The notes: a model not told the origin generated them from the sequence alone. 56,251 nt of DNA from an uncultured Clostridia bacterium (GCA_944345365.1 CALVMJ010000005.1:1-56251), one strand, 5' to 3'; shown: positions 18,890 to 52,971, counted from the stretch's first letter. Made by a program: numbers and translations.

Positions 18890-19108
18890 TTATAAATCCC
18901 TCGAATCTCCCTTTTCACTTGCTTTGTTTTTAGCCCTAATTGCCATTGAATATATTTCGCTTGCCTTTAAATTTCCTTTTGGCTTTCCGTTAAAATTGAC
19001 TTGTTGATATTTTATCTCGCTTAAACCACCTGGAACAACCATTTCGCTAACCTTATAAGTTTTTCCATTAAAGGTTACTGCTGTTTGTATTTTATTTTGA
19101 AATTCCAT
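18890..19108 (-). CDS. Orphan hypothetical protein ending SRDL
   Basis: AAGGAG RBS; own promoter TTTACA-N17-TATTAT (19135-19163). Confidence 0.75.
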   Translation of the reverse strand: MEFQNKIQTAVTFNGKTYKVSEMVVPGGLSEIKYQQVNFNGKPKGNLKASEIYSMAIRAKNKASEKGDSRDL

Positions 19109-19224
19109 ATTTGCTTCTCCTTTTCAGTTGACTTATAATAGCACATTTTTTTTATTTTGTAAATACCTTTTTTAAAATTTTTTAAAATATTTTTTTATTC
19201 GGAAATTAAAGGCAAGCAGGCATT

Positions 19225-20988
19225 TTACATTCTGTCTGGAATATCAATTGCTAAAACATAAAGTGCCTGCACCAAAGCTTTCTTAACAAGCTCACAAAGT
19301 GATAAGTAACTCTTTTTTCTTTCAACCTTTTTTTCGTTTAATATGTGGTGATTATTATAGAATGTTGAAAAAGCACTAGCCAAATCATAACTTGCACTGC
19401 AAAGAGTGTTTAAAGAATTTTCTTTGTAGCAAACTTGATAAGCGCCAATAAGTTTTAACAGTGAAATCAAAATCTTTCTTTCTTCATCACTCTCTATTTT
19501 TATTTCTCCGCCTTGACAATTTGTTTTAGCCATAATTGAATTTATTCTAGCTACTGTGTATTGAATATAAGGCCCGGTTTTTCCCTCAAAAGACAAGAAT
19601 TTATCTAGGTCAAAGACATAATCTTTTGTGACTGTATTAGACAAATCTCCAAATCTCATTGCGCCAAGTCCGATTTTTAACGCAAGTTCCCTGCTCGGCT
19701 TCACCCCATTACTTCTTAACTTTTCACTAGCCTTTTCAATGAGTAAATTTACCACATCGGCAAGTTTAACGGTCGTGCCTTCCCTTGTTTTAAAAGGCTT
19801 CCCATCTTTGCCATTCATTGTTCCAAATCCAACGTGCAATAATTCTTGCTCTGCCGGTGAAATTCCTGCCATTTTACAAGCCCTAAAAACTCTTTCAAAA
19901 TGGCTTGACTGTCTTCCGTCGACAACATAAATAATTTCATCTAAATCCTTAATAGTTTCATTTCTCATAAGGATTGTTGCTATGTCAGTTGTTGCATAAA
20001 CATCTGCTCCATTCTGCTTTTTTAATATAACAGGGGGCATTGGGTTAAGAAGATATGGCTGTCCATTTTCGTCAAGCTTGTCCGAAGGCATGTTTTCCCC
20101 ATCTTTTGCAACATCAACTATTAAAGCCCCTTCACTTTCATAGGCAAGCTTTTTGTCCTCAAAAATTTTTATTGTCTTTTCAATGTAGGCTTCAGCGTCA
20201 CTTTCTCCTAAGAACAAATCAAAGTTTGCATTTAATTCGTTATAATTTTTTTCAATTTCTTTAACTGAAACCTCACGGATTTTTTTATAAGCAGAATAAT
20301 ATGGTTCCTTTTTTTGCTGAATATAAAGAGTTATTTCACTTGCCTTTTGCTTAAATTCCTCGTCAAAATTCTTTCTTTTACTAGCCTTTGGATAAGCAAT
20401 GTTAAGCATTTCAAGGGTGATAATGGGTTCTTTTCCTGCCCCTTTAAAATAGTAATCTAAAACCCCTTCCTCTTGTAATTGAGCAATAGTAAGCCCCATT
20501 TGAAGCCCCCAATCGCCAAGATGCGCATCTGCTATAACCTCATCTCCAAAAAGCTTATAAAGTCTGTTTAACGCCTCCCCTATTATCGGCGATCTTAGAT
20601 GTCCAACATGAAGCTCTTTTGCCACATTTGCTCCGCCATAATCCATAAGAACTTTCTTTCTTTTTTTATTCTTTTCCACTCCAACAAGGTTATCTTCTAA
20701 AAGCTCTTGTGCTTTTTTGGAAAGATATCCATTTTTTATTCTTATGTTTATAAACCCAGGATTTTCTGCACTAAATTCATACTTGGTGTTTTGAGGAATA
20801 TTATTAACAATCTCGGTCGCCAATTCCAAAGGTTTTTTTGAGTGCCTCTTTGAGATAGCAAAACAACTATTTGATTGAAAGTCGCTCAGTTCTGGTCTAT
20901 TAGAAAAACTAACAACGAAATCTTCACCATAACCCAAACTGCTTCCAACTTTCTTTAAAATTGATTCAACTTCACTTTGTAAATTCAT
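19225..20988 (-). CDS. argS: Arginine--tRNA ligase
   Basis: NVAKELHVGHLRS, HLGDWG, FKTREG, EGKTGPYIQY. Confidence 0.97.
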   Translation of the reverse strand: MNLQSEVESILKKVGSSLGYGEDFVVSFSNRPELSDFQSNSCFAISKRHSKKPLELATEIVNNIPQNTKYEFSAENPGFINIRIKNGYLSKKAQELLEDNLVGVEKNKKRKKVLMDYGGANVAKELHVGHLRSPIIGEALNRLYKLFGDEVIADAHLGDWGLQMGLTIAQLQEEGVLDYYFKGAGKEPIITLEMLNIAYPKASKRKNFDEEFKQKASEITLYIQQKKEPYYSAYKKIREVSVKEIEKNYNELNANFDLFLGESDAEAYIEKTIKIFEDKKLAYESEGALIVDVAKDGENMPSDKLDENGQPYLLNPMPPVILKKQNGADVYATTDIATILMRNETIKDLDEIIYVVDGRQSSHFERVFRACKMAGISPAEQELLHVGFGTMNGKDGKPFKTREGTTVKLADVVNLLIEKASEKLRSNGVKPSRELALKIGLGAMRFGDLSNTVTKDYVFDLDKFLSFEGKTGPYIQYTVARINSIMAKTNCQGGEIKIESDEERKILISLLKLIGAYQVCYKENSLNTLCSASYDLASAFSTFYNNHHILNEKKVERKKSYLSLCELVKKALVQALYVLAIDIPDRM

Positions 20989-20997
20989 TATTTCTCC

Positions 20998-21591
20998 TTA
21001 GATATCTCTTCTTGCTTCAAGCGCTTTTGAAAGTGTAACCTCATCTGCATACTCAAGATCGCTCCCCATTGCTACTCCTTGTGCTAGTCTTGTCACCTTA
21101 ACACCCAATGGCTTTAAGAGTTTTGCAATATATAGCGCAGTTGCATCTCCTTCAACATCCGGATTTGTTGCCATTATAACTTCTTCTACATCGTCTTTCT
21201 GTACTCTTTGCAAAAGCTCCTTTACTCTTATGTCATTCGGTCCTCTGTTTTCAAGTGGGGAAAGAGTCCCAAAAAGCACGTGATAAACACCATCATAATT
21301 CTTAACCTTTTCCATAGCTAAAACATCTTTTGGCTCTTTTACTACACACACTATTTTTTTATTTCTCGTAGAACAAATATCACACACTTTTTTTTCGGTG
21401 TAATTTCCACACTCTTCACAAAATCCAATTTTTTCTTTTGCCTCTATTAAAGCGTTAGCGAAATTTTTTGCCCTTTCTTTGTCCCCTTCTATAATAGAAT
21501 AAGCATACCTTTGAGCTGTCTTATAGCCAACACCTGGCAATGAACGAAAATATTCAATTAATCTCTCTATTGGTTCGTCATATTTTTTCAT
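20998..21591 (-). CDS. recR: Recombination mediator RecR
   Basis: LPGVGYKTAQR, C4 zinc finger, ATNPDVEGDATA, LEYADEVTL. Confidence 0.97.
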   Translation of the reverse strand: MKKYDEPIERLIEYFRSLPGVGYKTAQRYAYSIIEGDKERAKNFANALIEAKEKIGFCEECGNYTEKKVCDICSTRNKKIVCVVKEPKDVLAMEKVKNYDGVYHVLFGTLSPLENRGPNDIRVKELLQRVQKDDVEEVIMATNPDVEGDATALYIAKLLKPLGVKVTRLAQGVAMGSDLEYADEVTLSKALEARRDI

Positions 21592-21592
21592 T

Positions 21593-21916
21593 TTACATAC
21601 CCGGTATTTGAGGCATAGATTCTTTTTCGGCTTTGTTTATTTGATTAATAGCATCGTTAAATGCTGAAATAATAAGATCTTGTAACATCTCGACATCATC
21701 TGGATCAATTACTTCTGGCTTAATTGATATGCTTTTGACCTGCTTATTTCCCATCATAATGATTTCAACCATTCCTCCGCCTACACTGGCCTTAAATTCC
21801 TTTTTTTCAAGCTCTGCCTTTGCAGACTCCATTTGTGCTTGCATCTTTTGTGCCTGTCTCATAAGATTTTGAATGTTTGCTCCTCCAAAACCTCCACCGA
21901 ATCCGTTATAACCCAT
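21593..21916 (-). CDS. ybaB: YbaB/EbfC nucleoid-associated protein
   Basis: LMRQAQKMQ, GGGMV, DPDDVEMLQDLI; dnaX-ybaB-recR context. Confidence 0.95.
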   Translation of the reverse strand: MGYNGFGGGFGGANIQNLMRQAQKMQAQMESAKAELEKKEFKASVGGGMVEIIMMGNKQVKSISIKPEVIDPDDVEMLQDLIISAFNDAINQINKAEKESMPQIPGM

Positions 21917-21940
21917 AATCAAATCTCCTTTTATTAATTT

Positions 21941-52128: not shown

Positions 52129-52148
52129 ATATGAGTATTAACGAATGT

Positions 52149-52225
52149 CGCGGGATAGAGCAGCTCGGAAGCTCGTCGGGCTCATAACCCGAAGGTCGTA
52201 GGTTCAAATCCTACTCCCGCAACCA
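52149..52225 (+). tRNA. Initiator tRNA-fMet(CAU)
   Basis: C1:A72 mismatch; TCGGG-CT-CAT-AA-CCCGA with three G-C pairs; encoded CCA. Confidence 0.97.
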
Positions 52226-52226
52226 G

Positions 52227-52571
52227 TAACCGGAAGACATCCGGTTTTTTTATTGAGGGAGGGAGTGGTTTGAAGCACGACCTCTTAGTGAGCCTAAGCG
52301 AACGAGCGGTCCTTTAAAGCTTCAAGCCCTACTCCAAGAGCCACTAACCGGAAGACATCCGGTTTTTTTTATTGAGGGAGGGGGGGGGTGAAGCACGACC
52401 TCTTAGTGAGCCTAAGCGAACGAGCGGTCCTTTAAAGCTTCAAGCCCTACTCCAAGAGCCACTAACCGGAAGACCTCCGGTTTTTTTATTGAGGGAGGGG
52501 ATTGAAGGACGACCTCTTAGTGAGCCTAAGCGAACGAGCGGTCTTTTAAAGCTTCAAGCCCTAATGCAAGA
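52227..52571 (+). repeat. Three tandem units of about 118 bp after tRNA-fMet
   Basis: Units start at 52227, 52345 and 52463 and are near-identical. Confidence 0.95.
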
Positions 52572-52596
52572 ATTAAATAAATACATAATACTTCAT

Positions 52597-52638
52597 AAAA
52601 AAAGCTTATGGGTTTAAAATACCATAAGCTTTTTTTTA
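52597..52638. terminator. Bidirectional terminator
   Basis: A run-GCTTATGG...CCATAAGC-T run. Confidence 0.75.
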
Positions 52639-52644
52639 GTTTTT

Positions 52645-52971
52645 TTATAGATCTCTGCCATCTTTTTTCGATTCCTTTATTGGAGGCAAAAAACTTGTTC
52701 CAAATTTAACCTTAATAATTTTTGCATTATCGTACCTATTTGAAATATAACTTTCAATAGATTGATTTTCTAGGTGTTTTTTTCCTGAATTTATTTCATC
52801 TTCTCTAATACTTAATATAACGCCTAATTTTTGTGTCCTTACATAGTACTCTCCTTCTGGAGTTTGATAGAAAAGAAAAATATTATTATCACATGTTTCA
52901 GGATCTTCTATATTTGGCATTTTTCTACTACTTAAACTGCTTATTTCTATGTATTTAATTTTATCTTTCAT
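52645..52971 (-). CDS. Orphan hypothetical protein ending GRDL
   Basis: AAGGAG RBS; promoter TTGACA-N17-TATACT (53005-53033). Confidence 0.78.
   Translation of the reverse strand: MKDKIKYIEISSLSSRKMPNIEDPETCDNNIFLFYQTPEGEYYVRTQKLGVILSIREDEINSGKKHLENQSIESYISNRYDNAKIIKVKFGTSFLPPIKESKKDGRDL

Follow-up and report, generated by a model that had tools for sequence, protein, structure and literature searches.

Five proteins encoded on one contig of an uncultured Clostridia bacterium (GCA_944345365.1, CALVMJ010000005.1:1-56251) end in the same C-terminal motif, R-[DT]-[LI], and in related species the last three residues of proteins from different ones of the corresponding gene slots resemble one another more within a single species than across species. 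We give about even odds (a probability of roughly 0.5) to the reading that R-[DT]-[LI] is this species' form of a co-drifting C-terminal docking tag, carried on disordered acidic tails and recognized by one putative reader. The window is the whole of this 56,251-base contig (C5) of the genome under study (G000), which comprises 914 kb in 30 contigs at 33% G+C, with a bin completeness of 98.4% and a contamination of 0.19%. One report (PMC12306168) describes reduced-genome Christensenellales of the family UBA1242 from animal guts and as common in animals, and we infer that G000 is a member of this family. A literature search for such C-terminal tails in this lineage surfaced nothing.

Open reading frames (ORFs) of at least 50 aa were taken longest first with overlaps of at most 60 nt, a crude set rather than proper gene calls, yielding 856 ORFs in G000 (92% of bases covered), of which 58 lie on C5. 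Comparisons drew on a genus sample of at least 119 species-level genomes, with subsets of 36, 41 or 60 in single tests, and on two relatives in particular: the sister species G008 (97% of its genome compared; 884 ORFs) and G099, the nearest relative found (87% identity to G000 in ychF and 73% in argS). Slots are named by position, with A after argS, B and C beside rplI and D before ychF; primes denote positional counterparts elsewhere, and the slot proteins of all sampled species were picked through positional rules only. The five carriers, RecR and the anchor genes are as follows, and translation confirmed the location and the ending that the first-pass annotation had given for each of the five.

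18890-19108, minus strand: ORF A, 72 aa, ends R-D-L; in the slot directly downstream of argS
28078-28569, plus strand: ORF B, 163 aa, ends R-T-I; convergent with ORF C across a common terminator
28597-29973, minus strand: ORF C, 458 aa, ends R-D-L; predicted folded N-terminal part and long, predicted disordered Gly/Lys-rich C-terminal region
42927-48494, plus strand: ORF D, 1855 aa, ends R-T-L; giant protein encoded in the interval from secA to ychF
52645-52971, minus strand: ORF E, 108 aa, ends R-D-L; species-specific, adjoining a tRNA gene and tandem hairpin modules
20998-21591, minus strand: RecR, conserved core protein, ends R-D-I; left out of the tag set
19225-20988, minus strand: argS, anchor of slot A (Pfam tRNA-synt_1d, DALR_1 and Arg_tRNA_synt_N); found in 41/41 genomes
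48522-49613, plus strand: ychF, anchor of slot D (Pfam YchF-GTPase_C and MMR_HSR1); found in 117/119 genomes
30429-30872, plus strand: rplI, anchor of slots C and B (Pfam Ribosomal_L9 N and C domains)
30033-30344: 103-aa ORF, co-anchor with rplI of slots C and B; gene order kept in sister loci

Within G000, the ending R-[DT]-[LI]-stop closes six of the 58 ORFs on C5 (the five carriers and RecR) versus none of the 798 elsewhere (Fisher p = 7.5e-8, or 1.1e-6 without RecR). When 58 random C-termini were drawn from the rest of the genome and any pattern of the form a-[bc]-[de] was allowed, at least six matches were reached in 10 of 3000 draws and at least five in 92 of 3000; the smallest binomial pattern p was 1.1e-12 for the observed set (2.1e-10 without RecR) versus 1.4e-8 as the lowest of 1200 draws. 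The Fisher test and the random-draw controls thus bear out the claim that the shared ending exceeds chance. RecR was not counted in the tag set because its ending is a family trait, with R-[DE]-L in two relatives and other endings in G008 and G099.

The ending is not a genome-wide orphan tag. Overall, 312 of the 856 G000 ORFs lack a BLAST match in G008, and only five of these end in R-[DEST]-[LIM], all on C5, which does not support the scattered repertoire proposed earlier. The enrichment in orphan over core genes that the first-pass annotation proposed to test is weak, with 5/312 unmatched versus 1/544 matched ORFs in G000 (p = 0.026) and 4/343 versus 3/541 in G008 (p = 0.44). Nor is the broader [DET]-[LI] ending enriched genome-wide in G000 (34 of 856, versus about 28 expected by our own arithmetic).

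Several artefactual sources of the shared ending were rejected. The six endings are spelled with differing codons in G000, and synonymous codons also differ where the tail residues of different families agree with one another. Such differences, seen in G000 and nine sister species, led us to reject both gene conversion and a DNA repeat as the origin of the shared 3′ ends, and they argue for selection on the protein. Terminator overlap was likewise discarded as a cause, only ORF A having its last codons inside a hairpin, where they form the 5′ arm of a terminator-like structure (18902-18881). A chimeric bin was rejected because C5 is syntenic with sister genomes, carries core genes and comes from a bin of low contamination.

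Conservation of the exact motif in orthologues and counterparts, which the first-pass annotation had made a test of its proposal, was not found. Strict R-[DT]-[LI] closes 3 of 184 positional counterparts (and 0 of 1679 background ORFs), none of the 884 ORFs of G008 and none of 13 ORF C orthologues, which share about 22-32% BLAST identity. The orthologues nearest to G000 end differently, and the uniform endings of G000 are therefore not simply inherited. In G008, the ending R-x-L is found on each of A′, C′ and D′, and in B′ this triplet stops one residue short of the C-terminus; A and A′, B and B′, and D and D′ are unalignable between these two species (z of about 0). Variation within 90% clusters was uninformative, the members being more than 95% identical. 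As a separate observation, seven of the 884 G008 ORFs end in R-[DES]-[LM]. Two of them are slot proteins, three (806, 690 and 116 aa) have no match in G000, and the remaining two are conserved, with G000 counterparts that end differently.

A looser form of the ending does recur across the genus. R-x-[LIMFV] closes 12 of 125 counterparts, G000 excluded, versus 33 of 1679 background ORFs (p = 2.9e-5), with 5/39 in A′, 0/22 in B′, 2/24 in C′ and 5/40 in D′. It was seen again in 6 of 59 fresh tails (p = 0.0016), giving 18 of 184 when all tails were pooled (p = 5.4e-7). The A, C and D families have a common end profile, in which Asp or Glu is enriched from -7 to -5 and Glu or Gly at -4, while position -3 favours Arg or Leu, -2 favours Gly, Glu or Thr, and -1 favours Leu or Arg; it shows little enrichment beyond -7, and a similar profile reappeared in the fresh tails. 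Tail composition was rejected as the cause, given the low rate of R-x-[LIMFV] at internal places of the same tails (38 of 5242) and the null result of the shifted windows described below.

The tails of different families also change together. In a first set of 79 pairs (A′, C′ and D′, without G000), the within-species likeness of the last three residues gave z = 4.0, a value reached by 0 of 2000 permutations, and z = 3.3 when G008 was left out as well. Dropping three near-duplicate species gave z = 3.7, or 4.4 by identity, and the leave-one-out minimum was 3.1. A hold-out of 39 C′-D′ pairs, drawn from 19 species with newly obtained C′ and 20 new species, gave z = 3.1 (p = 0.0014). Across all data without G000 (136 pairs) z rose to 5.2, with 4.7 for C-D, 2.6 for A-C and 1.5 for A-D. 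The C′ and D′ proteins have an identical last residue in 18 of 59 species versus 6.1 expected. When the windows were moved inward by 3-32 residues, z fell to between -1.5 and +1.8 in the first set and between -2.0 and +1.3 in the hold-out, which excludes the amino-acid composition of each species as the cause. With one species per C-identity cluster (28 clusters), the C-D comparison retained a median z of 3.3, and all 40 of 40 draws gave p < 0.05.

A number of observations weigh against a co-drifting tag. Related species are not independent, and with only 14 or 8 clusters z drops to 1.7-2.0 (1.7 for C-D); this weakening under clade collapse means that much of the effect consists of a few styles at clade level. 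Taken by themselves, the 20 wholly new species yield z = 1.25 (p = 0.11), the A-D pair is not significant by itself, and slot B follows neither A (z = 0.9) nor D (-0.8) and C only weakly (1.8). In G099, A′ alone has an R-x-L end, with Lys at -3 of C′ and different endings on B′ and D′. Furthermore, the motif classes were partly defined after data were seen, the rule for slot A chooses a doubtful ORF in a few species, ORF calling was crude throughout, and proteome-wide, species-specific end preferences were checked in G000 and G008 only.

The carriers sit between core genes, as had been proposed, in a context that includes argS, a MurJ-like flippase, rplI, alr, rpsF, secA, ychF and a class II aminoacyl-tRNA synthetase. 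None of the five belongs to a Pfam or NCBIfam family, and no family or fold emerged for them from PDB-sequence, Atlas, Foldseek or VIA searches, the best VIA hit (Z of 6.4) being to generic helical bundles. Their description as orphans is correct only in part. ORFs B and E each find only their own cluster among 5.8 billion proteins (a 90% cluster for B) and no homologue in 60 genus genomes. The description does not hold for ORF C, whose profile, built from 24 orthologues, matches 115 of 119 genus genomes, and three others (A, B and D) have positional counterparts. Matches to ORF C occur in 24 of 36 genus genomes versus none of 25 genomes of other families, taken one per family. ORF A has no sequence homologue in 60 other genus genomes; a small ORF occupies slot A, by rule, in 39 other species. 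At slot B, a convergent ORF is present at 14 of 14 loci examined and the motif at none of them. Likewise, a large ORF ends just 5′ of ychF at 29 of 29 loci examined, with the motif in 0 of 29. The G008 ORF at the place corresponding to ORF E has a different ending.

The AlphaFold model of ORF C has a predicted local distance difference test score (pLDDT) of about 90 across residues 30-300, whereas residues from 325 onward mostly score below 50, and the motif closes a stretch of about 130 residues of low confidence that are presumably disordered; no convincing fold match was found for this protein. ORF D contains a hydrophobic stretch (residues 1614-1660) with about 195 residues beyond it, shows 23.6% BLAST identity to its G099 counterpart and has no detectable homologue of its last 400 residues in 60 other genus genomes. 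It also contains an internal repeat (45963-46352 and 47292-47711), 37% identical over 140 residues. A hydropathy scan revealed no hydrophobic segment in ORFs A, B, C or E, in agreement with the earlier statement that the small carriers lack a signal peptide.

The further claim that each carrier has its own promoter was borne out in part. Four of the five carriers have a high-scoring site, with 10-11 of 12 matches, close upstream (A, 19163-19135; B, 28013-28041, with 11/12; D, 42860-42888; E, 53033-53005), and ORF C has only 9/12 sites. Sigma-70-like sites are, however, barely commoner than in shuffled sequence (57 versus 43.3, and 39 versus 34.6). Two additional proteins had been listed as possible variants of the motif, the ORF at 36773-37189 and a leucine-rich repeat protein, and neither fits it. 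The G099 counterpart of the former is 31% identical and has an unrelated ending.

Under the docking-tag reading, the carriers would be at least three fast-evolving, genus-wide families in fixed slots, namely a 45-90-aa protein after argS, a protein of about 460 aa beside rplI and a giant membrane protein before ychF, with the species-specific ORFs B and E carrying the tag too in G000. The last three residues differ among species and clades yet change in parallel across families, as expected if the tails are read by one putative partner that recognizes free C-termini and has co-evolved with its ligands. In that case the tail would serve as a docking or address tag. What survives from the first-pass interpretation, besides the excess over chance and the presence of VirD4-like and VirB4-like genes, is the probable disordered tail, according to the ORF C model, and a genus-wide tendency of the same syntenic families, rather than a dispersed effector repertoire.

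The leading candidate for the putative reader, judging from what is known of the family, is the VirD4-type coupling protein of a conserved VirB4/VirD4 pair like that of mycoplasma integrative and conjugative elements (ICEs); a cytoplasmic hub or adaptor is equally possible. A search for VirB4 and VirD4 homologues outside mobile elements had been suggested, and genes resembling both were found. The VirD4-like gene matches PF02534 in two pieces at contig ends (C26:1751-3298 and C12:21907-22442), from which it follows that these contigs adjoin; it was detected in 41 of 41 genus genomes searched, and its neighbours, in G000 and G008 alike, are a cardiolipin synthase gene and a giant ORF. The VirB4-like ATPase (903 aa) scores 565 bits against NF045975 (mycoplasma-ICE VirB4), under the cut-off of 590, and its matches to several other VirB4/TraC models also fall below their cut-offs. 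It is 68% identical to its G008 homologue, which has a conserved position. The two genes lie outside any evident mobile element, and in one neighbourhood in G008, the sole sister genome examined. The VirB4-like gene lies in the following locus.

C3:50961-63903 of G000: VirB4 locus, in which the ATPase overlaps the start of a 3414-aa ORF followed by 1247- and 1176-aa ORFs; same layout in G008

The main rival to the docking-tag reading is coincidence combined with inheritance, in which each family keeps its own slow-changing ending, a few clades by accident have similar endings in two families, and the five happen to coincide in this genome, as would be expected somewhere among about 250,000 windows. 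We consider this rather unlikely, although it would explain why the exact motif is absent from the 798 other ORFs of G000, the 884 of G008 and nearly all counterparts (3 of 184), why the closest relative keeps R-x-L on A′ alone, and why the signal weakens on deep-clade collapse and is not significant in the 20 new species. By our own arithmetic, moreover, a p of 2.1e-10 (without RecR) multiplied by at least 6e4 effective patterns and about 250,000 windows gives several chance cases. Coincidence sits less well with the hold-out, which repeats both the enrichment of R-x-hydrophobic ends (p = 0.0016) and the C-D co-variation (p = 0.0014), or with shifted-window controls that are null despite sharing the same phylogeny. 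It also has to accommodate a signal that is strong at 28 clusters and three unrelated families with one position-specific profile.

The first-pass annotation had favoured a type IV secretion signal; a VirD4-like protein would read it, and the carriers would be effectors exported to a host or partner cell. Such a signal would fit a VirD4-like gene in every one of 41 genomes, a VirB4-like ATPase adjoining giant ORFs among core genes, and carriers that lack signal peptides and whose disordered, acidic tails close on a hydrophobic residue, in the general style of Dot/Icm substrates. Nothing, however, ties the tails to the type IV genes. Both occur in every genome, leaving no co-occurrence contrast; PF03135 has no match in G000, and the VirB4 score lies under its cut-off. 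The five carriers share a single contig, and 307 of 312 unmatched ORFs have no such tail. One carrier, the largest, is an 1855-aa membrane protein, and ORF C is a core protein of the genus rather than a variable effector. We rate the secretion signal as quite improbable. A C-terminal degron for ClpXP or another protease or adaptor, which would keep the carriers short-lived, appears very improbable. ClpX recognizes C-terminal degrons through their final three residues together with the free carboxylate, and ClpP is present in G000 beside a 431-aa ORF taken as ClpX by position only. Against this, the transfer-messenger RNA (tmRNA) tag of G000, identified with ARAGORN, ends in non-polar Ala-Ala, unlike the charged R-[DT]-[LI] ends, in which -3 is Arg and -2 is Asp or Thr, and no match to the S41 tail-specific protease family (PF03572) was found in this genome. 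ClpX is also highly conserved, which would leave no reason for clade-specific drift of its signals. With regard to PDZ ligands, G000 encodes at least one PDZ-domain protein, a protease of the HtrA type, and the carriers have no export signals. The encapsulin shell family (PF04454) has no match in G000, which speaks against an encapsulin cargo-loading peptide.

Other features of the contig lie apart from the tails. Next to ORF E, at 52149-52571, a tRNA gene (Rfam, 63.7 bits) stands behind a perfect promoter-like site (52100-52128), and three 118-bp modules come after it in tandem, each containing a terminator-like hairpin; given these modules, an 81-aa ORF at 52372-52617 is probably not a gene. 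Between secA on the minus strand and ORF D on the plus strand (42532-42927), gene orientation and cumulative GC skew both switch, in what looks like an origin-type strand switch. A 2776-aa ORF at 7587-15917 has a hydrophobic segment at its N-terminus and, towards the C-terminus, a membrane anchor with a basic tail behind it, and is conserved in G008 (28% identity) and in G099 (56% over partial sequence). The contig end cuts off another ORF (54912-56249), which encodes collagen triple-helix repeats (Pfam, 138.6 bits) and lies in a region of higher local G+C (42%).

Cells use short C-terminal labels, common to several unrelated proteins, to direct cargo to one machine. If the present label drifts with its reader, the genus would offer a natural series of matched label-reader pairs, and the reader could be found by co-variation. 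A tag of this kind, if real, would provide a first handle on many uncharacterized proteins of a reduced-genome gut lineage; if phylogenetic inertia explains the effect, the shared endings are an ordinary coincidence.

Several known systems invite comparison. Substrates of VirB/VirD4 systems have Arg-rich tails, and those of Dot/Icm systems have a Glu-rich 'E-block' plus a hydrophobic residue close to the C-terminus. The present tails resemble them in being unstructured, according to prediction, on unrelated proteins, acidic before the end and hydrophobic at the last residue, in a genome with a coupling-protein gene; they differ in that there are about five carriers, core and giant membrane proteins among them, in that only the last 3-6 residues are informative and in that the lineage is Gram-positive. 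In the LPXTG/sortase, PEP-CTERM/exosortase and GlyGly-CTERM/rhombosortase systems, a motif is followed by a membrane helix and then a basic cluster. These systems likewise place a lineage-specific C-terminal tag on unrelated proteins for which a cognate reader is expected, whereas here the motif is the very end, with no hydrophobic segment after it, that of ORF D lying 195 residues before the end.

The acidic tail of single-stranded DNA-binding protein (SSB), with its hydrophobic last residue, is a docking peptide through which one protein meets many partners, and the SSB encoded in the window (35936-36346) carries such a tail. The likeness is a disordered acidic tail, hydrophobic at its last residue, that would be read as a free C-terminus; here, by contrast, many proteins would meet one putative partner and the sequence drifts. 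In the eukaryotic peroxisomal targeting signal 1 (PTS1), the TPR domain of Pex5 reads a C-terminal tripeptide whose consensus is nearly universal. As would be the case here, a free C-terminal tripeptide labels unrelated proteins and the residues just upstream have an influence, but the tripeptide of the present lineage varies by clade. By analogy, the tails might constitute a clade-varying, PTS1-like address whose co-evolving receptor, most attractively of the VirD4 type, docks or exports a few unrelated, fast-evolving proteins, an extension that we regard as unlikely. It would place such an address, most attractively together with a chromosomal, mycoplasma-ICE-like type IV apparatus, in a tiny-genome and probably partner-dependent lineage of gut Clostridia.

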